From a candidate division WOR-3 bacterium (GTDB lineage: Bacteria; Hydrothermota; Tepidihabitantia; Tepidihabitantales; CAIPLT01), in assembly GCA_965649215.1 (NCBI GenBank), contig CBFGJZ010000037.1, positions 1-9,242 on the forward strand: a DNA stretch of 9,242 nt. The letters are read 5' to 3'. Positions 1 through 9,242 of the stretch are shown here, piece after piece (the stretch's first letter is position 1; each line of letters starts with the position of its first letter). Under the pieces are notes generated by a model, which was not told the origin of the DNA, ran no database searches, and saw only the letters and a list, made by a program, of their open reading frames with translations. Position numbers and translations under genes: made by a program.

Positions 1-114
1 CCAATATTCAGCGGTATTGCCACCGCCGAACTGAATTGTTTGTCCATACAGCGCCCAACTCCCGAAAACAATAAGTAAACTAAAGACAAAGAATAATTTA
101 TTTTTTACTGTCAT
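1..114 (-). CDS. 5' end of an exported protein, truncated by the window edge; possibly an outer-membrane protein
   Basis: Not in the ORF track. ATG at 112-114 overlaps the end of the upstream TlpA-like gene. The frame stays open to base 1 and reads MTVKNKLFFVFSLLIVFGSWALYGQTIQFGGGNTAEYW, with a basic N-terminus, hydrophobic core and likely cleavage before QT. Confidence 0.7.
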   Translation of the reverse strand, partial: MTVKNKLFFVFSLLIVFGSWALYGQTIQFGGGNTAEYW

Positions 115-625
115 CGCATTTTTTAGTTAATTCTCTAATCTTTTCCATAACTTTTTTCTCATCACCTGGCTTATAACCCTGATGGGTAAATATAATCTTC
201 TTGTTCTGGTCAACAATGAAAAAAGTGGGCATTACCTGCACATTATATGATTTACGCAGCTTATTTTCAGGATCTAAAACAATCTGATATTGCCATTTAT
301 GGCCTGCGGCAAAAGATTTAACTTCATCTTTGGACTTTGCTTTATCTTGGCTGATCGCTAAAAAACTAATACCCAATGAATCTATCTCTGGATAGTAAGG
401 TTTTAAGGCATCAAGTTCTTTAATACACATCTTACACCATAATGCCCAAAAACTCATTATCACGGGGCCCTTTTTGATGAGTGAATCAAGCACAACTAAC
501 TTACCATTAATATCATAAAGACTAAAACTGCTTGCATCTTTAAGAGTTATGGTCTTATCTTCTGCGTGCAGTCCTGCACTGATTAATAGTAATATTGATA
601 TTAAAGTTATAATTATCTTTTTCAT
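98..625 (-). CDS. TlpA/ResA-family thiol-disulfide oxidoreductase (redoxin), exported
   Basis: Motifs FSLYDING, SFWALWCKMCIKE (WCxxC), cis-Pro loop VMPTFFIVD and HQGY. Signal peptide MKKIIITLISILLLISAGLHA. ATG at 625, preceded by GGAG, is preferred over the track's start at 637. Confidence 0.9.
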   Translation of the reverse strand: MKKIIITLISILLLISAGLHAEDKTITLKDASSFSLYDINGKLVVLDSLIKKGPVIMSFWALWCKMCIKELDALKPYYPEIDSLGISFLAISQDKAKSKDEVKSFAAGHKWQYQIVLDPENKLRKSYNVQVMPTFFIVDQNKKIIFTHQGYKPGDEKKVMEKIRELTKKCDDSKK

Positions 626-626
626 A

Positions 627-1337
627 TCACTCCACAAACTTGGTTTTTATTGCTTGTAATATTTTTTTACTTTGTCGATCTTGCAGAAAAACAACTCCTC
701 GCATTTTAGGCGGGGCAATGTTGTGATTAAAATTAATAATTGTATCTAAACTATCTGGATAACTAACATTAATGGGTATCGTCGTGAGTTGTCTTACGAC
801 AAAATTAAAAGTACCCCCGAGATCACCTCGGATGCTATCCTCGCATATCGCAATAAAGGCGTAAACTGAATCGTGCCGAATGGTATCCGCAGCACCTATC
901 TTCAGGTGTAATTGACCGCTATTAACCGTCACACTACCCGTTAATTCTAAATTGTAACTTGGCACAATTGATTTGGCAACAATATAGTGCTGATTAAAAA
1001 CTGTATCATAAGCATTGGGATTATTCTCAAAAACAACATCTGTCCCATCAAAAACTACGGTTGGATAAGCTAAAATATTATAATAATTCATTCGTTCTTG
1101 AATCTGGGGTAGTTCAGGTTGTACAGAATGATTATAAGAGACAATCACTATTGAATCTCCATAATTAGTATGCAATTGAACAAGCGACTGCTCCGCAGCC
1201 GCACAAAAAGGTCAACCATCCTCAGTAAAAAACTCAACTAAAACAACGCGATTAGTTGGTGTCGGCAAGATGCGCGGTGCTTCCGAACAAAAAACAAAAA
1301 ACAGCGGTAATAACAATAAAAATCTCTCTATCTTCAT
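627..1337 (-). CDS. Omp28-like thioredoxin-fold selenoprotein, predicted lipoprotein, UxxC (U42-P-F-C), 236 aa
   Basis: The track ORF 627..1175 extends in frame through TGA at 1212-1214 to ATG 1337: MKIERFLLLLPLFFVFCSEAPRILPTPTNRVVLVEFFTEDG-U-PFCAAAEQSLVQLHTNYG. U occupies the first Cys position of a thioredoxin CxxC after the RVVLVEFFT strand. Later motifs YPTVVFDG and ICEDSI...FVVR. A SECIS-like hairpin follows the UGA. Confidence 0.88.
1184..1202 (-). promoter_or_regulatory. SECIS-like hairpin for UGA 1212-1214
   Basis: GCGGCUGC-GGA-GCAGUCGC: 8-bp stem (one G-U) with a G-containing loop, starting 9 nt after the UGA; GC-rich in an AT-rich gene. Confidence 0.75.
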
Positions 1338-1343
1338 TCTATT

Positions 1344-1371
1344 ATTATAACTCCGATATCTTTAATGTCAA
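1344..1371 (-). promoter_or_regulatory. sigma-70-type promoter, probably giving a leaderless mRNA
   Basis: TTGACA (1371-1366), 16 nt, TATAAT (1349-1344), then 6 nt to the ATG at 1337. Confidence 0.7.
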
Positions 1372-1376
1372 TTTAT

Positions 1377-2027
1377 TTACTTAACTTTAAGTTCGATGTC
1401 GTCAGCAAGGACCCTTGCTTCACATGAAGCACCTCAGCATCCATTGGTTGTATCCATAACAACAATTTGAAGCTTTTTTATATCCGAAACAGTAATTCCG
1501 GATAAGTGACTCAATTCTTCGCTAATCTTAAAGCTGTAATTGTACCAGCTGTCCATATGTGGTACATTTATTAAATGTAGCGTGCTAGTATTTTGCCAAG
1601 GGCAATGCGCTGTTTTAGAGACGATACGGGTTTCACCTAATAATTGGTAGCTGTCATTTAAATATCTTAAACAAATTGCCGCGGCTGCCCAATAAGAAGC
1701 ATTGGGGTTATATTCAATTGCTCGTAAATTTGCTTTCGCAGAAAACTGAAGATCACTTGTTGGAAAATCTATGGTCTGGTACAATTTAATGTGTCCGGCA
1801 TTGATCTTTTCTATAACTAACTCAAAATCATTATCTCCATCTAAGTTTTGATAGCGAGCAATCTCGTCTGAATAATTTAATCCGGAAGTATTCCTTTGCC
1901 ACCCGCTATTTAAGTCTTGCTCAAAATCACCATTAACAATCACTTTATTTATTATTGGCGATGAAGAATTACGATGGCAAGCACTAACAATAATAAAAAT
2001 TACTAATAGAAAAAAAGTTTTACGCAA
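1377..2027 (-). CDS. Lipoprotein with CBM4/9-like jelly-roll domain, selenoprotein with C-U198-GAS-C motif, 216 aa
   Basis: TTG start and lipoprotein signal MRKTFFLLVIFIIVSA-C. NGDFEQ...W opens the domain. The track stop TGA (1434-1436) is followed in frame by GASCEARVLADDIELKVK-TAA(1377), which matches the post-UGA sequence of the paralog (SGHCMARVLADDVAL). A SECIS-like hairpin is present. Confidence 0.87.
1404..1419 (-). promoter_or_regulatory. SECIS-like hairpin for UGA 1434-1436
   Basis: AGCAAG-GGUC-CUUGCU, starting 14 nt after the UGA, with possible lower pairing AUGU/ACAU. Spacing and loop are identical to the paralog's hairpin, with compensatory stem changes. Confidence 0.85.
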
Positions 2028-2036
2028 TTACCTTAA

Positions 2037-3950
2037 TTATTCCACTAATACTACTCGATAGCTAACTTTCTTGTGGTTATCAAGTACTAAATCAATGAAA
2101 TACACACCTGAATTTAGTTTCTGATTGTAGTCGTCTTTGCCATCCCACACTACAATATTTTCTTGATTATTTTTAGTATTTATAGTTTTAACACAATTAC
2201 CTAGTGTATTATAAATCCGCACTTTAATCTCTCGATGATTATCTGCTGAATATTGAAAATAAACCTGCTTACCAATTTTGATTGGATTAGGATAAATTCT
2301 AAATTGAGTTGAACTAATTTGGGTTTGGGGTGTTTCTTGAATGCCTGACAAGGTTATACCAAAAAATTTCATTATAGAATCAAGCAATATCTGTTTTGTC
2401 GAAGGTGCCGTACCATCTACCAAACTACCAAACTCAAACGAAACACCGATTGTCCGATAATTACCTGCATTATAAGCAACGCCACAATTATAACTATTAT
2501 TGCCGTCTTGGAATATCACATAACCAGTTGTCGCATTAATCCGATCCATATAGTTATTTTCTCCTGAATAATTGAAGTCCATTCCTGCAGTAAAAGTGTT
2601 ACTTACACCGATAACCGGTCCCATATCGCCGCTGCCATCGCTTACCCCAACTAAACCAAACATCGTATTAAAATTATGTCCGCCCACTTGTGGGTCATAA
2701 TACCAGACTTCGCCTCCTTCCATGTAAACTCGACCACCGCTGTTAAGATAATTAATTATCGCAGTTGCCTCAGCACCATTGGCAGCAATCCGATAATTAT
2801 TCGGGTAGACACCACAACAAACAAAGATCGACCGATAAATATCTAAGGTCGGTTCCGCAAGTAAATTAGTTGTAATCGCCCCAGTATAGCCATTAAAAGT
2901 TAAAAGATTGTGAATCGTTTGACCTGATGAAGGTGTGATATCTGGGTTCCAAACCAAATAATGATAAGAACCAACCACCAACGTGAAATTAAAGGTATCA
3001 GAAAAACTCCCTTCACTTGCAATTAATCTAAATACCGCATTGTGTCCCTGGGGACAAGAAGTGGAAACTGTAATTTGATAAGGATCCGCTGTATTCTCTT
3101 TAATGCTATCAATTAAAATACTTCCAAAATAGCCGCTATTATCGTTGATCGTTATATAGGGACTGCTACTCTGAAGGGTGGTGTTTAAATTGTTAAAATT
3201 AGCGCCACCAATATTGCGGAGAAGCGCGGTTAGATTAACGGTTTCACCTGGATCTAAACGCCCATTATTATTGCCACTTCCATCATAAACATTAGCTTTA
3301 ATAAAGCTCAAGTAATGATTGGTGCCATTATAATTTAAGGCCACATCATCGGCGAGGACCCTCGCCATACAATGACCACTTCAGCACCCATTGGTTGTAT
3401 CTAATAGAGCAATTTGAACTTTTCTAATTTGGGTTGGATTTACTCCTGGTAAATTAGCAAGTTCGTTATTTAAGTTAAAACTATAATTATACCAGTTATT
3501 CGGGTCCGTAACATTAATTAGATGAATCGTACTGGTACTTGTCCAAGGACTATGCGGGGTTTTGTAAGCAATACGGGTTTCGCCAAGTTGATTACCGTTT
3601 GCGTCCAGATATCTTAAACAAATCGCTGCGGCTGCCCAATAAGTTGCAGTTGGAGTATATTCAAGGGCATACAATTTTGCAGTAACCGAAAAATCCAAGT
3701 CAGTTGTGGGAATATTCACCGTTTGATATAATTTTGCATATATTTCATCATATTTTTTAACTCTTACCTCATAATCAGGATCAAGATCAAAATAAGTTTG
3801 ACGATCAATCGTATCTGAAGTATTCTGAAGTCCAAAAGCACTTGACCAACCAATATTCAAGGGTTGTTCAAAATCGCCATTTGTTAACAAACGTCCACCC
3901 AGACCAATACTTATTATTGATAAGAACAAGATCAAAAACTTTACCCTCAT
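2037..3950 (-). CDS. Secreted multidomain selenoprotein, 637 aa: CBM-like domain with C-U190-SGH-C, Ig-like domain, alpha/beta domain and C-terminal T9SS/FlgD-Ig-like sorting domain
   Basis: Track ORFs 3381..3965 and 2037..3368 are in one frame, separated only by TGA-AGT-GGT-CAT-TGT. ATG 3950 has AAGGAG 6 nt upstream and a signal peptide MRVKFLILFLSIISIGLG. Internal GNNNGRLDPGETVNL and YLNSGGRVYMEGGE segments. The C-terminus has IYPNP...IYNTLG...WDGKD...SGVYF. Confidence 0.87.
3339..3377 (-). promoter_or_regulatory. SECIS-like hairpin for UGA 3381-3383
   Basis: Upper stem GGCGAG-GGUC-CUCGCC (3366-3351) starts 14 nt after the UGA; possible lower stem GGUCAU/GUGGCC. Confidence 0.85.
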
Positions 3951-3967
3951 CGGGAACTCCTTCAATT

Positions 3968-5017
3968 TTATTTCAGTATTATTTTTCCTATTTTAGAGCC
4001 GGCGTCGCATTCAAACCGATAAAAATAAGTACCAGCACTCACCGAGTTAGAAAAATCACATTTCACCGATTCGTTATTACTACGAGTAACGCCTGATATT
4101 GTTTTCACATTTCGACCACTAATATCAAAGATTGTAATTTTATATTTACTTCCTTGGTTTAAAGCAAAAGTAAACCATACCTGATTATGAGCAGGATTTG
4201 GTGAAACTGAAATTGGATAATTATTAATTTTGCTTTGGTTGGGTTCTTCAACACCTGTTAAATTTAAATCTAGAAGTTTTATTTTTGCACCTTGATTAAT
4301 TCGTTTCGTAATATTCACATTCATTGGATCTTGAATCATCGCAATTATTTCAACTCGGCTTTCAACCCATCCCGATGCAATTGAAAACGGATAACTGACG
4401 GTTATGGAATCCTGGTAGTTTAAAGTTACTGGTGTACCAATATGGTCAGGCAGATAGTCGCGTGCGACATGATTATGCCACTGGTCACCATTAGGTGTTT
4501 GTCGATAAATACTATCTTCTGTAATTACAAATAATACATTGTGCTGTAAAGTCGTTACAGTATCACTGATAAAACGTACATAGATTGTACCTGTTCGAGT
4601 TGCTTGATTATAATCTCCCCAAATTCGTGCATTAATACGTGATTCCACTGCTGCCCGCTGTAATATTAAATTTTCCCAATTCGAATAACTACTACCTGCG
4701 CTATAGTCGCCATCTATCCACAACCATGGGGTATAATAAGTTGTACCCGGCATGGGTAGATAAAAAAATCGGTTGCGTGCTTTTAATAAATACATTCCAT
4801 AACTTGCATAACTAGAATTGACATGCATTTCCACCGCTGCCGTTGCTCGGGGATAATTATATGAGATTTGTGCCAGTACACTACTGGCCGTAACACAAGA
4901 AGCTCAGCCCTCTGAATATGCTTCTTCGCAAACCACTACGCGATCATATGCTTGAATTGAAGCAATGAGCCCCAATCCAACAATTATTAATAGGGTACTA
5001 AATAATTTATTAATCAT
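3968..5017 (-). CDS. Omp28-like thioredoxin-fold selenoprotein, UxxC (U38-A-S-C), with signal peptide and C-terminal T9SS-like sorting domain, 349 aa
   Basis: The track ORF 3968..4834 extends in frame through TGA at 4904-4906 to ATG 5017: MINKLFSTLLIIVGLGLIASIQAYDRVVVCEEAYSEG-U-ASCVTASSVLAQISYNYPRATAAVEMH. Motifs YTPWLWIDG and VITEDSI...HNHVARD. The C-terminus has VSPNP...IFDISGR...AGTYF...KI. GGGGG lies just upstream of the ATG. Confidence 0.88.
4868..4898 (-). promoter_or_regulatory. SECIS-like hairpin for UGA 4904-4906
   Basis: GCCAGUA-GUG-UACUGGC (4888-4872): perfect 7-bp stem with GU in the loop, starting 15 nt after the UGA; possible lower pairing UUGU/ACAA. Confidence 0.78.
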
Positions 5018-5041: not shown

Positions 5042-5070
5042 ATTTTATCAATCATTTTTTATATTGTCAA
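5042..5070 (-). promoter_or_regulatory. sigma-70-type promoter of the selenoprotein operon
   Basis: TTGACA (5070-5065), 17 nt, TAAAAT (5047-5042), with an extended -10 TG. Confidence 0.7.
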
Positions 5071-5134: not shown

Positions 5135-5228
5135 GGAGGCGGATGGGTGCTGGTGTGCCTGCTGGACTTCAAATCCAGGTGTTCTTCGAAAGGAGAACGG
5201 TAGGTTCGATTCCTACACGCCTCCGCCA
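5135..5228 (+). tRNA. selC: tRNA-Sec (anticodon UCA)
   Basis: 94 nt. Acceptor GGAGGCG(G)/(A)CGCCTCC-G-CCA; 6-bp D stem GGGTGC-TGGT-GTGCCT; anticodon arm CTGGA-CTTCAAA-TCCAG with TCA at 5169-5171; long variable arm GTTCTTC-GAAA-GGAGAAC; T arm GTAGG-TTCGATT-CCTAC. Adjacent to selB. Confidence 0.97.
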
Positions 5229-5231
5229 ATA

Positions 5232-7262
5232 TTAAATTTTATTTATAATTTTAAGCGAAAGCGTCCTCACATCTCCTTGTCGGACGGTAATCCCTTTAGA
5301 ATCAAAATAAATTAAAAGGGGTAGGACCGCTCGTCGACTGGCATTTAGTAAATCCCTAAATTGTGAAACTCTTATTTCTTTGTTGTGCTTTAAGAATTCA
5401 ATCAATTTTAACTCTGCTTCTTTAACATATTTGTGATGCAAAACTAAGCCCTCGCCAATATTAATTAAGATTTTATTGTCAAGCAAATACTGATAAGCTT
5501 TTTTAATATCATTCTCTTTGCCAATTATTTTCGATTTCACATCCTTAAAATCAAGCGGTTGAAACTTTTGTGCTAATATCAATTTTTCAATTCTTTCAAC
5601 ATAGTCGGCAATAGTTTTCTCTAAAGCCACCTTAAATTCACTAAGATATATTTTTTTATCTGCTGAAATTTTAATTACTCCNNNNNNNNNNNNNNNNNNN
5701 NNNNNNNNNNNNNNNNNNNNNNNNNNNNNNNNNNNNNNNNNNNNNNNNNNNNNNNNNNNNNNNNNNNNNNNNNNNNNNNNATCTTGTTGAAGTTCTTCAA
5801 TTGCCCAGTCAAAAAGTATTTTATCTAAAGCAGGGCTTGCCTTCTTTAATAATTCTAAAGCTGAAATACCAATACTACTCGGATTGTTTTTATGATAATC
5901 TTTTAGCTCTTCAATAATTTTTTGCTTTAATCTTTCTCTATTCTCAGTGTGATAGTATAGTTCTTTTTTTTCATCTAAACACAATACCTTACGCTGAGCA
6001 ATTAACTGTCCCAATAAATCTTTCACTTCATGCATCGGCAGATTAATATCTTTAGCAATTTCAATTGGTTTTTTAGCCAAGTCAAAATTTGTTCTTAAGT
6101 CTTCTTCAACCAAAACTATTGGTTCAGCCGTTTCGGTACGTGCTAAATGGCCTAATAATTCCTCATTATAGCCTTTGATTTTTATAGCTTTTGGTTCTAG
6201 AATAATGCCACCCCCTATGGTTGTTTGAGGCGAATAAGTTCTTATCACAAACCGGTCGTTGATGCCGCAAACCACAGATTCTTCTAAGCGGAATTGGACA
6301 ATCGCTTTATCCCCCGGATTTAATAATTTCTTATCCAGAAGCACAACTCGACCTAACACTTCTTTAGTACCGATATGAATTCGCAATCGTTCAAAGTTTC
6401 TTAGTGGCTTATCAATTCTACTTAACAGGTATAAGGAAGCATTTACAAACATGGATGGTTCATAAAAACCACCTTGCGCTAAAACATCACCTCTTTCAAT
6501 CTCGTCTTTTTCAACGCCCACTAAATTAATTGCCGCCCGAAATCCTGTACCGACTTCGTCTACTTGTTTGTTGTGTACTTCAATCCCTCGTACCTTAACT
6601 ATCTTCTTTTGAGGTAAAAGTTCCAATTCTGCTCCGACTTTGGTTTTCCCTGATAAAATAGTACCAGCCACCACGGTTCCAAACCCCTTAATGGTAAAAC
6701 AACGGTCTATCGGCATTCTAAAAATTCCTCGGTCAATTTTAGTTTCGGTCTCACCAATCAATTTATCTAATATGCGCTTTAGCTCATCAATACCTTCTAA
6801 AGTAACATTTGAAACCGAAACAATTGGCGCACTTTCCAGAAAAGAATTGCGCATTAACTCTTTAACATCATTCATAACAATCTTCAATCGTTCCTCTTTT
6901 ACTAAATCTTTCTTAGTAATCACTACGATTCCTTTTTTAATCGCCAATAGTTTTAAAATTTCTAAATGCTCATAGGTTTGGGGCATAATACCATCATCAG
7001 CCGCAATCACAAATATAACAATATCTACAGTCGAAGCACCGGCTACCATATGTCGAACAAATTTCTCGTGTCCAGGCACATCAATAATCGTAGCATTATC
7101 CCCATAAAAGACGAAACCTAAATCAGTGGTCATACCTCGTTCTTTTTCTTCTTTTAATCGGTCTGGATCCACACCCGTCAAAGCTTTAACTAAAGCGCTT
7201 TTACCATGGTCAATATGACCAGCCGTCCCAATAACAATGTGTCGTTTTATCGTATCAGTCAT
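5232..7262 (-). CDS. selB: Selenocysteine-specific translation elongation factor SelB (contains an assembly gap)
   Basis: [64 protein letters not shown], and a C-terminal winged-helix FRDLLNASR...PLLIYFD...RQGDVR. Located next to selA and selC. Confidence 0.97.
5682..5780. other. Assembly gap (99 N)
   Basis: Run of N inside selB. Confidence 0.99.
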
Positions 7263-7268
7263 ATTTTA

Positions 7269-8668
7269 CTACATTGTTTCTCGAAATGCTTGTAATATAA
7301 TCTCACCTTCGCCAGGAAGAATGGTACGAAAATCTAACATTAATGCGTTCGCTTGAACTCTACCAAAAATAGGTATTTTATATTGTCTCAATTTTCTTGC
7401 TAATTCTTGGCTGGGCATAATTTTTGGTTGGATCGAGACAACATAACTATCAAGTTCTTTGGTTGATAACGAACCGCCGCCAATTTCGGCNNNNNNNNNN
7501 NNNNNNNNNNNNNNNNNNNNNNNNNNNNNNNNNNNNNNNNNNNNNNNNNNNNNNNNNNNNNNNNNNNNNNNNNNNNNNNNNNNNNNGTCTGCAAGGTTGC
7601 TTCTAATACCGCATTTGTTAATTTATCACAACGCAAAGCCCGAGTGAGCGGGTGTTTCTTAATCTTTTCAATATATTCTTTTTTGCCAACAATAATTCCT
7701 GCTTGGGGTCCACCGATTAATTTATCGCCACTAAAACAGACAACATCAGCGCCTGTTTCGATACTTTCTCTAACCATTGGTTCTTTGGGTAAGCCGTATT
7801 TACTAAAATCAATCAACGCGCCACTTCCTAAGTCATCGACCACAGGAATATGATACTTTTTACCTAATGCGACTAGTTCAGACAATGGTACTTCTTTAGT
7901 AAAACCAGTTATTTGATAATTAGATTGGTGGATCCGAATAATTGCACCAGTTTCTGGCTCTAAACCTAATTCACTGTTGGATTTTTGATTAATTTTTCTT
8001 TCTCTCTTTTTGCCTTTATTTTTAATGTGTATCGCTTGTTCATAATCTTTAAGATGGGTCCGATTTGTTGTCCCAACTTCTTTCATAATACAACCTGATT
8101 GTGCCATAATTTCAGGAATCCGAAACGAACCGCCGATTTCAATCAACTGGCCACGAGAAACAATTACTTCTTTGCCTTGAGCTAATGCTCGCAAAACTAA
8201 TAAGGTTGCGCCAGCATTATTGTTAACTACAATACCTGCTTCGGCACCTGTTAAAATTTGGAGTAGTTTACTAATCTTTTTATAGCGGTCATCTCTTTTG
8301 CCTTCATCGTCAATTTGTAATCTTGAATATGCTTTAGCGACATCTGCCAATATCTCCGGGATACCACTGACAAAAGGTGCTCGACCAAGGCCGGTATGAA
8401 GCACAATGCCAAGGGCATTTATCGCATACTTAAAATACCTTTGAGTTAGATAATTCAATTCGCCAACTATCATCTGTCTTAAATTATCTGTATTTAACGA
8501 TTCGCCTTTAAGCAGTTTTTGTCTAAACTCATCAACCTTATCTCTAATAATCTTAACCAAGTATCTATGCTCTAATCTATCTTCAAACTCTTTAATTTCC
8601 TGCCAATTAAGAATTTTATCAACCGACGGAATATCTTTAAGTAATGATTTTTTATTAATCGTTGCCAT
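7269..8668 (-). CDS. selA: L-seryl-tRNA(Sec) selenium transferase SelA (the frame change falls inside an assembly gap)
   Basis: IPSVD, INALGIVLHTGLGRA, VVNNNAGA, VSRGQLIEIGGSFRIPEIM, EVGTTNRT, DLGSG and the PLP-lysine motif FSGDKLIGGPQAG. After the gap the correct frame is AEIGGGSLSTKEL...PIFGRVQANALMLDFRTILPGE...RETM-TAG(7269), 6 nt before the selB ATG. The track's end at 7400 is in the wrong frame. ATG 8668 is preferred as start. Confidence 0.96.
7491..7586. other. Assembly gap (96 N)
   Basis: Run of N inside selA. Confidence 0.99.
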
Positions 8669-8673
8669 AAACA

Positions 8674-8701
8674 ATTATAGATTAGAGTATTAAGATGTCA
8701 A
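8674..8701 (-). promoter_or_regulatory. sigma-70-type promoter of selAB, probably giving a leaderless mRNA
   Basis: TTGACA (8701-8696), 16 nt, TATAAT (8679-8674), then 5 nt to ATG 8668; no Shine-Dalgarno visible. Confidence 0.72.
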
Positions 8702-8822: not shown

Positions 8823-9242
8823 TTACGCTTCAATTCCTAAATCTTTCAGTTTTTTATATAATTGCACACGTTGAATATTTAATGCTTTAGCGGTTTTAGT
8901 TTTATTATAGTTGTTTTCCGCCAATACTTTTAAGATAAATGCTTTTTGAAATTCATTGGTTGCTTGTTTGAGTGTCTGATTGGTATTAACTTGCGAGTTG
9001 CTAGTCTGTTCGATTAATGGTATTAAATCTTTTGATTTGATTTCTTTTTCTTTAATTAAAATTGAAGCCCGCTCCATTAAGTTTTCTAATTGTCGGACAT
9101 TACCAGGCCATGATTGATTCATCAAAAATTCGATCGCACTTTGTGAAAGTCGCTTTTTCATAACACCGTTTTCTTCGCAGTATTTCTCTAAAAAATAATC
9201 AGCTAAAGCACCTATCTCTTCTTTGCGCTCTCTTAATGGTGG
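8823..9242 (-). CDS. Sigma-54-dependent transcriptional activator (NtrC/AtoC-like), C-terminal part with Fis-type HTH; 5' end outside the window
   Basis: The frame is open to the window edge: PPLRERKEEIGALADYFLEKYC..., WPGNVRQLENLMER, and HTH NKTKTAKALNIQRVQLYKKLK. Confidence 0.93.
   Translation of the reverse strand, partial: PPLRERKEEIGALADYFLEKYCEENGVMKKRLSQSAIEFLMNQSWPGNVRQLENLMERASILIKEKEIKSKDLIPLIEQTSNSQVNTNQTLKQATNEFQKAFILKVLAENNYNKTKTAKALNIQRVQLYKKLKDLGIEA

Follow-up and report, generated by a model that had tools for sequence, protein, structure and literature searches.

The stretch of DNA analysed here, a 9,242-nt sequence from a candidate division WOR-3 bacterium (contig CBFGJZ010000037.1) that is called the window throughout, has a G+C content of 35.7% and carries all of its protein genes on the minus strand. 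Reading TGA as selenocysteine (Sec, U) fuses its open reading frames (ORFs), as called with genetic code table 11, into four genes, G1 to G4, which lie beside the genes for Sec decoding: selA, selB and the gene for tRNA-Sec (selC) are all present in the window (Table 1). G1 is 117 nt from tRNA-Sec, with selB and selA next beyond the tRNA gene. In the other direction G1 to G4 and a further gene, G5, form five closely packed genes, and a sixth begins in the first 96 nt; the gaps measure 17 nt (G1-G2), 9 nt (G2-G3) and 39 nt (G3-G4). G1 encodes 349 amino acids with Sec at residue 38 (motif EGUASC), and G2 encodes 637 amino acids with U190 in NGCUSGHC, counted from an ATG at 3950 that has AAGGAG before it (an alternative start is TTG at 3965). 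The shorter G3 and G4 encode 216 and 236 amino acids, with U198 in NGCUGASC and U42 in DGUPFC, respectively. A preliminary description of the window had claimed that it holds four hidden, exported selenoprotein genes beside selA-selB-selC, and had listed the positions of the four in-frame TGAs and the three gap lengths. All of these positions and lengths prove exact on the minus strand, and the claim itself is strongly supported by the conserved TGAs, the hairpins that follow them, a Cys homologue and a beta-strand encoded past the UGA. We regard it as close to certain that the four TGAs are Sec codons and that the genes are genuine selenoprotein genes.

Table 1. Genes, Sec codons, hairpins and promoter-like sites of the window (positions are those of the 9,242-nt window; SECIS, selenocysteine insertion sequence; T9SS, type IX secretion system; CBM, carbohydrate-binding module).
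Feature	Positions	Strand	Basis
G1: signal peptide, thioredoxin-like/Omp28-like domain, T9SS type A sorting domain (~3971-4207)	3968..5017	-	translation, Pfam, NCBIfam
Sec codon of G1	4904..4906	-	in-frame TGA; conserved in G1-like genes
SECIS-like hairpin of G1, GCCAGU / loop / ACUGGC, begins 15 nt past UGA	4872..4888	-	folding, alignment
G2: signal peptide, CBM-type beta-sandwich (~3333-3893), Ig-like domain, alpha/beta region, T9SS sorting domain (~2049-2297)	2037..3950	-	translation, Pfam/NCBIfam, AlphaFold model
Sec codon of G2	3381..3383	-	in-frame TGA; homologous codon TGA in 39/39 loci
SECIS hairpin of G2, GGCGAG-GGUC-CUCGCC	3351..3366	-	folding, covariation
G3: lipoprotein-type N-terminus (..IVSAC) and stand-alone beta-sandwich as in G2	1377..2027	-	translation, AlphaFold model, Foldseek
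Sec codon of G3	1434..1436	-	in-frame TGA; homologous codon TGA in 39/39 loci
SECIS hairpin of G3, AGCAAG-GGUC-CUUGCU	1404..1419	-	folding, covariation
G4: lipoprotein-type N-terminus (..FVFC), thioredoxin-fold/Omp28-like	627..1337	-	translation; weak Pfam matches; thioredoxin 1fo5
Sec codon of G4	1212..1214	-	in-frame TGA; conserved in G4-like genes
SECIS-like hairpin of G4, GCGGCUGC-GGA-GCAGUCGC	1184..1202	-	folding, 4-sequence alignment
G5: exported ResA/TlpA-like thiol-disulfide oxidoreductase, WCKMC motif, without Sec	98..625	-	Pfam AhpC-TSA, Redoxin
Start of DUF6029-like gene, off window edge	1..96	-	tblastn to residues 24-51 of L002 DUF6029 protein
tRNA-Sec (selC), anticodon TCA	5135..5228	+	ARAGORN; Rfam RF01852, 77.5 bits vs gathering 47, E = 4.6e-15
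selB (Sec-specific elongation factor), N run 5682-5780 inside	5232..7262	-	TIGR00475, 333.6 bits vs cutoff 242.25
selA (L-seryl-tRNA(Sec) selenium transferase), two frames flanking N run	7269..8674	-	TIGR00474
C-terminal part of sigma-54-dependent regulator, off window edge	8823..9242	-	NCBIfam PrdR/AtoC-like matches, each under cutoff
Promoter-like site TTGACA-17-TAAAAT with TG before -10, upstream of G1	5042..5070	-	11/12 matches
Perfect sigma-70 consensus TTGACA-16-TATAAT, in the 39-nt G3-G4 gap	1344..1371	-	12/12 matches; consensus match only

Comparison with related loci strongly supports selenocysteine at the four TGAs. A scan of one genome per species with an alignment of G3 gave 41 loci (numbered L001 onwards), of which 39 are usable, L041 being an unrelated weak match and L037 being cut before the site. 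In this G2/G3 family the homologous codon is an in-frame TGA in all 39 loci, and the frame stays open for 20 to ~970 codons past it. The read-through ORFs end in TAA (18 loci), TAG (12) or TGA (7), with two cut by contig ends, so that TAA or TAG closes 81% of the 37 complete ORFs. The peptide after Sec is conserved as G-x(3-6)-A-x-V-x-A-D-[DNE], with Gly directly after Sec in 33/39 loci, and, as read by eye, the loci end in a type IX sorting-like sequence, except for the short G3-like form (L003) and the two contig-cut loci. The G1-like and G4-like genes of the related loci likewise have TGA at the same position in 6/6 and 4/4 cases. Within the window, the first ~210 residues of G2 are 50% identical to G3, and the two are paralogues. 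TGA still works as a stop here, because it ends G4 (627-629) and because the other protein genes have no in-frame TGA (0 in each of selB, selA, G5 and the regulator gene).

Standard annotation had been expected to split or truncate the four genes, and it does so for G2, G3 and G4 in public protein sets. A search of a 5.8-billion-protein set with G3 returned 27 matches, all ending at the residue before U, 24 of them in Cys. Proteins of 353-1124 amino acids gave 35 matches to G2 residues 1-260, and because none covers more than 23% of these residues, all 35 are post-UGA fragments. The 24 non-self matches of G4 are all of at most 194 amino acids, which is the length remaining after U42, and they were therefore taken as cut at the UGA; no close Cys form of G4 is among these 24. 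A profile of the G2/G3 domain built from 37 sequences (L017, L027, L033 and L040 were left out because of uncertain starts) matched 522 of 1.84 billion cluster representatives at E <= 0.001. Among the best 150 of these 522, 115 stop at the Sec site, 17 extend across it, 5 are without the C-terminal part and 13 are other fragments. Two of the 17 spanning representatives, P0110 and P0121, have Cys in the Sec column; the preliminary description had proposed looking for Cys at these positions in relatives that lack sel genes. P0110 shares 49% identity with the L028 protein and has Cys where that protein has Sec, and judged from this alignment the two are a classical Sec/Cys pair. For the G2/G3 family as a whole, the alignments indicate that Sec is the rule, that Cys forms are rare and that more distant relatives have neither. 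A Cys counterpart of the Sec of G1 and G4 comes only from alignment to CxxC thioredoxin-type models.

A SECIS-type hairpin comes after each UGA, in agreement with the preliminary description, and the hairpins of G2/G3 and of G4 show covariation. From the window alone they are weak evidence, because only that of G2 beats shuffled sequences: single-sequence folding gave z = -0.73 (G1), -2.53 (G2), -0.44 (G3) and -0.49 (G4), and the G2 hairpin (dG = -19.2 kcal/mol) is the sole one to stand out thermodynamically. An Rfam scan of the window returned no SECIS match at E <= 1. The loops of the window hairpins begin ~18-22 nt past the UGA, and bSECISearch expects a loop 16-37 nt from it. For the G2/G3 hairpin we aligned 40 sequences (two from the window and 38 from related loci; L020 was omitted because it is cut), anchored on the post-Sec peptide. 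The consensus is NGCNNN-GGUC-NNNGCN, formed by the five codons of A-x-V-x-A, with 98.6% of cells paired and both-side changes in 33 cells at 4/6 pairs, figures to be read in the light of the anchoring, since aligning on the peptide and reading the structure from the same sequences favours pairing. None of 500 shuffles reached the percentage paired, the number of both-side-changed cells or the covariation score, a control that kinship among the sequences inflates, and 76/500 reached the count of pairs with both-side change; slid-arm controls paired only 21-61% of cells. The codon pairs AAG/UUC, GAG/UCC, AGG/CUC and UGG/UAC exchange jointly, so that the RNA determines which residues go together in the protein: Lys-Phe, Glu-Ser, Arg-Leu and Trp-Tyr. 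These paired residue changes sit on either side of a fixed Val, two residues apart, in the last beta-strand. The G1 hairpin, aligned in 7 sequences, has 95.2% of its cells paired and no covariation, because 4/6 pairs never vary. The G4 hairpin has 81.3% of cells paired and both-side changes in 4/8 pairs, a count that rests on 4 sequences.

In both G1 and G4 the UxxC motif follows a hydrophobic strand, as in thioredoxins. G1 matches Pfam Omp28 (PF11551) at 35.0 bits, barely above the gathering threshold of 34.9, and a PDB sequence search with G1 matched the sorting domain alone. G4 is not listed for PF11551 at E <= 0.1; it has weak Pfam matches to Thioredoxin_2, Glutaredoxin and DUF1223 and aligns with thioredoxin 1fo5 of the PDB at E = 3.6e-4. 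Both proteins also match the NCBIfam models NF045500 (Omp28_seleno; 43.1 bits for G1 and 25.8 for G4, cutoff 200) and NF033782 (Omp28 lipoprotein; 43.2 and 31.5 bits, the latter for G4, cutoff 150). Because these scores are far under the cutoffs, G1 and G4 are at best distant Omp28 subfamilies. The preliminary description had placed every TGA in a Cys-type redox motif; this fits G1 and G4, whose UxxC occupies the position of the thioredoxin CxxC, and in G2 and G3 the flanking Cys vary.

The Sec of G2 and G3 lies in a beta-sandwich domain. The AlphaFold model of G3, obtained with the read-through alignment, has a predicted local distance difference test score (pLDDT) of 91.6 and a predicted template-modelling score (pTM) of 0.83, and that of the N-domain of G2 has a pLDDT of 80-96. 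In the models Sec sits in a short loop and is followed by a long final strand (residues 202-215 in G3, 194-206 in G2). Since this strand is encoded after Sec, a table-11 ORF ending at the UGA would lack an integral strand. Foldseek returned 143 matches to the G3 model at E <= 0.001, CBM-type beta-sandwiches of several families among them, with probability 1.00, E values down to 7.7e-7, target-normalised template-modelling (TM) scores of 0.4-0.68 and identities of 8-16%. The G2/G3 domain begins with NGDFE and ends with ADD in its last strand, features that are typical of CBM-type modules, and no credible Pfam or NCBIfam family matches it at E <= 0.1. A ribosomal L2 match of G3 (E = 0.027 and 0.0014, Pfam/NCBIfam) was treated as spurious. 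Full-length G2 gave low-TM Foldseek matches to multi-domain GH2 glycosidases (TM ~0.2), from which nothing was kept beyond the sandwich and the Ig-like domain. The alpha/beta region of G2 (residues 412-509, window 2455-2718) has a pLDDT <50 and no family match; in relatives quite unlike modules take the place of this region, and their proteins total 300 to ~1150 amino acids.

Of the 37 aligned domains, 22 have Cys directly before Sec (L016 and L038 were counted from the sequence, as MAFFT misplaced their Sec), and many relatives have Gly, Thr, Ser or Tyr in place of this Cys. Other domains of the 37 have CxxU, UxxC or UxxxC, and the 14 that are without a nearby Cys all carry a Cys just before a conserved Trp. 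All 37 domains thus keep a candidate partner Cys, at U-1, within 4 residues of U or ahead of that Trp, a pattern consistent with a selenenylsulfide.

Export of the four products is very probable. G1 and G2 have signal-peptide-like N-termini, and both have a C-terminal sorting domain: TIGR04183 scores 41.4 bits in G1 and 31.5 in G2 (cutoff 23), PF18962 Por_Secre_tail scores 41.5 and 28.3 bits (cutoff 27), and the sorting domain of G2 has PDB profile matches to those of PorU and PG93. Because of these type IX secretion sorting domains, G1 and G2 should reach the cell surface, and G3 and G4, because of their lipoprotein-like start, should stay in the envelope. No T9SS sorting domain was found in G3 or G4 in the Pfam and NCBIfam scans, and the closest relatives of G3 retain the lipobox Cys. 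Export signals had been claimed for all four products, a claim that is supported for G1 and G2 by their scored T9SS domains and for G3 and G4 by lipoprotein-type N-termini recognised by eye. In the window, each protein type has a secreted copy and a lipoprotein copy.

Gene neighbourhoods were compared by tblastn of the window proteins against the related loci, within the fetched flanks. L001, L002, L004, L019 (with two copies) and L037 each have a G1-like gene immediately upstream of a G2-like one; the preliminary description had pointed to synteny as a check, and this order recurs in five loci. In L002 and L019 this pair is followed by G4-like and G5-like genes. L003 contains a G2-like gene, a G3-like gene and the start of a G4-like gene, and L023 (TA06) carries, besides a G4-like gene and selA, a short G3-like gene that includes a sorting domain, and a G5-like gene. 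Past G5, a DUF6029 protein (~510 amino acids) and a NapH/MauN-like Fer4_5 ferredoxin occur in all three loci that extend there (L002, L019 and L023). The system is therefore not self-contained, contrary to what had been proposed: the cassette continues with G5 and, in these three relatives, with the DUF6029 protein and the NapH-like ferredoxin. Positions 1-96 of the window align with the N-terminal part of the DUF6029 protein of L002 at 47% identity (E = 0.003 within the window, tblastn). HHpred similarity of DUF6029 to Wzi-like outer-membrane barrels is reported in PMC9603273. The proposed clustering with the decoding machinery holds in the window itself, where tRNA-Sec, selB and selA adjoin the cassette, but not generally, as tRNA-Sec or selA is nearby in only 3/39 loci (L002, with tRNA-Sec by G1; L023, with selA; and L034, with selA ~6 kb off). 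A selB-like match in L016 (31% identity, 160 amino acids) was not counted as sel linkage because any translational GTPase could match.

G5, which starts 1 nt past the G4 stop, has an AhpC-TSA domain (PF00578, 74.5 bits, gathering 26), a Redoxin match of 62.1 bits and a CxxC motif, and is therefore of the ResA/TlpA type; its score against NF002854 ResA is 79.9 bits, under the cutoff of 170, and its N-terminus is signal-like as read by eye. Tandem duplications are common among the loci: two sandwich genes lie in a row in L039 (5426-7094), two consecutive G1-like genes in L019 (7584-9804), and a long and then a short sandwich gene in L003 (23-2597), as in the window.

On the other side of G1, SelA matches TIGR00474 at 440.3 bits (cutoff 268) over 7403-8674, and its final 49 amino acids (7272-7418), in the other frame, match profile positions 411-454. 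The main selA ORF (7400-8674) crosses a masked N run (7491-7586) and has its stop at 7400, and the frameshift is either real or hidden by the mask; the second masked run of the window lies in selB (Table 1). Unlike selB, selA and the selenoprotein genes, the tRNA-Sec gene is on the plus strand, ending 3 nt from the selB stop, and the tRNA-Sec of L002 (3249-3342) is likewise opposite in orientation to G1. The two top minus-strand sigma-70-like sites sit in the two largest gaps, which hints at two transcription units, G1-G3 and then G4 onwards; sigma-70-like sites occur in the region at the chance rate (22 found vs 22.1 expected). The site in the G3-G4 gap ends 6 nt before the G4 start codon, and an mRNA from it would be almost leaderless. 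The 5' side of the cassette varies, with a glycosyltransferase in L002 (710-2965), a PAS/GAF sensor protein and a LuxR-type response regulator in L019 (4660-7307), and, in the window, the sigma-54 activator beyond selA.

The explanation that we favour as a whole, with a probability of roughly 0.8, is that the locus encodes two paralogous pairs of exported, Sec-decoded proteins, which may act in a joint thiol/selenol relay. Each UGA would be decoded through its downstream SECIS hairpin by the neighbouring SelA, SelB and tRNA-Sec. The products are one pair with a thioredoxin-fold UxxC and an Omp28-like body (G1/G4) and one beta-sandwich pair (G2/G3), the single Sec of the latter being in the loop just ahead of the last beta-strand. 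Reducing power may enter the periplasm via the NapH-like protein and the ResA-like protein and would then pass to the UxxC thioredoxin-fold selenoproteins. These in turn would keep reduced, or cycle, a selenenylsulfide between the sandwich Sec and a nearby Cys, with the beta-sandwich supplying a substrate-binding surface. Sec coding, the relationships of the families, their fold, the sorting domains and the gene order are shown by the analyses above; the direction of electron flow, the interaction of the two protein types and the chemistry of the sandwich Sec are what we infer here, and for the joint redox relay, taken by itself, we consider the odds to be even. A much bolder extension, which we think improbable, is that the cassette carries electrons through all layers of the envelope by selenium chemistry and without heme, as a functional counterpart, made of selenols and thiols, of the porin-cytochrome conduits. 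Such a path would run from the inner-membrane, quinol-linked NapH-like ferredoxin through the periplasmic ResA-like protein and the UxxC lipoprotein to the DUF6029 outer-membrane barrel, and would end in a surface pair of UxxC and beta-sandwich selenoproteins anchored by type IX secretion. Were it to exist, its terminal component would be an undescribed, nearly always Sec-containing family of binding modules.

Several observations weigh against the favoured explanation. The folding energies of the G1, G3 and G4 hairpins are not significant, and to this are added the limits already given for the alignments, namely the peptide anchoring and kinship in G2/G3, the invariant pairs of G1 and the four sequences of G4. 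Signal peptides and lipoboxes were recognised by eye in the translated sequences, the NF045500 scores leave G1 and G4 outside that family, no selD was seen within the 9.2-kb window, and selA is split over two frames at a masked stretch. Furthermore, 15 of the 17 site-spanning relatives (best 150 of 522) have neither Sec nor Cys, and P0118 (637 amino acids), 36% identical to G2 over 340 residues, reads C-A-E-G-H-C where G2 has C-U-S-G-H-C, with Ala at the Sec position and both flanking Cys retained. The beta-sandwich fold therefore needs no Sec, and a non-redox role is possible. The pattern of partner Cys probably represents few independent events, and in ~30/39 loci a G2-like gene stands without partner genes nearby. 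Some of these points are what would be expected if the four genes encode real selenoproteins that do not form one machine and are co-located, here beside selABC, only through common regulation or joint acquisition, an alternative that we hold to be rather unlikely, though the most serious of those considered. The sandwich proteins would then be surface adhesins or binding modules with the selenenylsulfide as a structural cross-link, and the thioredoxin-fold proteins general envelope oxidoreductases or folding helpers. The ~30 loci in which no G1-, G4- or G5-like gene lies in the fetched flanks, the relatives with neither Sec nor Cys, the widely varying modules C-terminal to the sandwich and the Foldseek neighbours, which are binding modules and not enzymes, are all in agreement with it. 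Against it stand the G1-G2 order in five loci and the series G4-G5-DUF6029-NapH-like shared by L002 and L019 (L023 has its G4-like gene upstream); the records of three of these loci name Latescibacterota, Stahlbacteria and TA06. Moreover, a secreted and a lipoprotein copy of each type look like matched pairs, and the nearby Cys is always retained.

A different role for the sandwich Sec, which we judge doubtful, is that of a surface ligand for a soft metal or chalcogen (reduced or elemental sulfur or selenium) instead of a redox catalyst, with the thioredoxin-fold proteins loading or unloading it. Indeed, the domain is shaped like a binding module, and beyond the SECIS-encoded residues of the last strand Sec alone is constant in the loop, with Gly next to it in 33/39 loci and flanking Cys that vary; yet no metal-binding family of Pfam or NCBIfam matched, no other invariant ligand-type residue was identified next to Sec, and the partner Cys that is always present is a better fit to a selenenylsulfide. 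That the TGAs are not Sec codons at all is very unlikely. Ordinary stops would make of the locus eight small genes, truncated pseudogenes or assembly errors, and gene callers do split it in this way in all database entries seen, while three of the four hairpins are thermodynamically unremarkable. Such stops would hardly be kept as TGA in 39/39, 6/6 and 4/4 cases when the true stops of the 37 complete G2/G3-family ORFs are 81% TAA or TAG, nor would they be followed by a conserved peptide with a covarying hairpin. They would also leave the last beta-strand encoded past the stop, and would reduce the N-terminal piece of G1 and G4 to a bare signal peptide of 37-41 amino acids. A reassigned code in which TGA means Trp or Gly (tables 4 or 25) would open the same frames and is more improbable still: TGA ends G4 1 nt before the start of G5 and stops 7/37 related ORFs, selA, selB, G5 and the regulator gene contain no TGA in frame even though TGG and Gly codons occur in them, a relative without Sec has Cys at the aligned position, and a complete Sec decoding set lies alongside.

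Sec recoding, SECIS hairpins, thioredoxin-fold selenoproteins with UxxC and the NCBIfam model of an Omp28-related selenoprotein are already known. What looks new is the sandwich-domain selenoprotein family, which is without a Pfam or NCBIfam model and is split in all database entries seen, together with selenoproteins that have type IX sorting domains and the conserved cassette. We found no paper on the sandwich-domain family, in a search that did not cover BSepDB's list of 111 families, where it may be listed under another name. We likewise found no literature linking Omp28 with selenoproteins and, judging relevance by title, none linking selenoproteins with type IX secretion or T9SS. A search for selenocysteine and WOR-3 gave nothing related by title, and one for selenoproteome and Cloacimon gave a tRNA-Sec paper only. 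Omp28, T9SS, lipoproteins and secreted selenoproteins do not appear in the available portions of two reviews (PMC13188914, 2026; PMC9312934, 2022) or of the BSepDB paper (PMC13326102). Discovery of bacterial selenoproteins leans on Cys homologues, as stated in the deep-Sep paper (PMC12013277). Such Cys-based searches would tend to miss the G2/G3 family, because 115 of the best 150 representatives stop at Sec and 2 show Cys. A recurrent family of surface proteins from uncultured lineages, labelled in the records as WOR-3, Latescibacterota, Cloacimonadota, Stahlbacteria, TA06 and Eisenbacteria, takes on a different annotation once its full proteins are restored, and the window genes would place selenocysteine outside the cell. 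With the ResA-like protein, the DUF6029 barrel and the NapH-like ferredoxin as partners, they lead to a testable hypothesis of an envelope redox pathway. The SECIS within the last beta-strand is, furthermore, a clean case of RNA structure shaping protein sequence.

The elements of this locus can be compared with several known systems. Like the SECIS of E. coli fdhF, the window hairpins begin 9-15 nt past the UGA and have a G-rich apical loop, GGUC in G2/G3 and GGA in G4; the fdhF loop likewise contains GGUC. G1 and G4 align with the Omp28-related selenoprotein model NF045500 and with Omp28 (NF033782, PF11551) around Sec and over the protein body. As in Omp28 lipoproteins, G4 starts lipoprotein-like, with its Sec in UxxC at the start of a thioredoxin-like helix, whereas G1 carries a signal peptide and a T9SS sorting domain and not a lipobox. 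With the ResA/TlpA/DsbE oxidoreductases, of which G5 is a clear CxxC member, G1 and G4 have in common the arrangement of beta-strand, U/CxxC and helix and the exported location, but in addition they bear a large domain of the Omp28-like kind. ResA/TlpA proteins usually receive electrons from a membrane protein of the CcdA/DsbD type; none is seen here, and the cassette has the NapH-like ferredoxin instead. The G2/G3 domain has its fold in common with CBM4, 6, 11, 16 and 61, the sugar-binding domain of Fbs1, the MAM domain and the C-terminal domains of phage tailspikes, from which it differs in sequence (8-16% identity) and in its Sec, which does not appear in the descriptions of the listed PDB neighbours. 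Finally, the G-C-U-G of G3 and G-C-U-S of G2 resemble the Gly-Cys-Sec-Gly of mammalian thioredoxin reductase, and by analogy the adjacent Cys and Sec of G2/G3 could form a selenenylsulfide of the same kind; in the reductase, however, the motif lies at the flexible C-terminus of a flavoenzyme, whereas in G2/G3 it is internal to a beta-sandwich, and no homology is implied.

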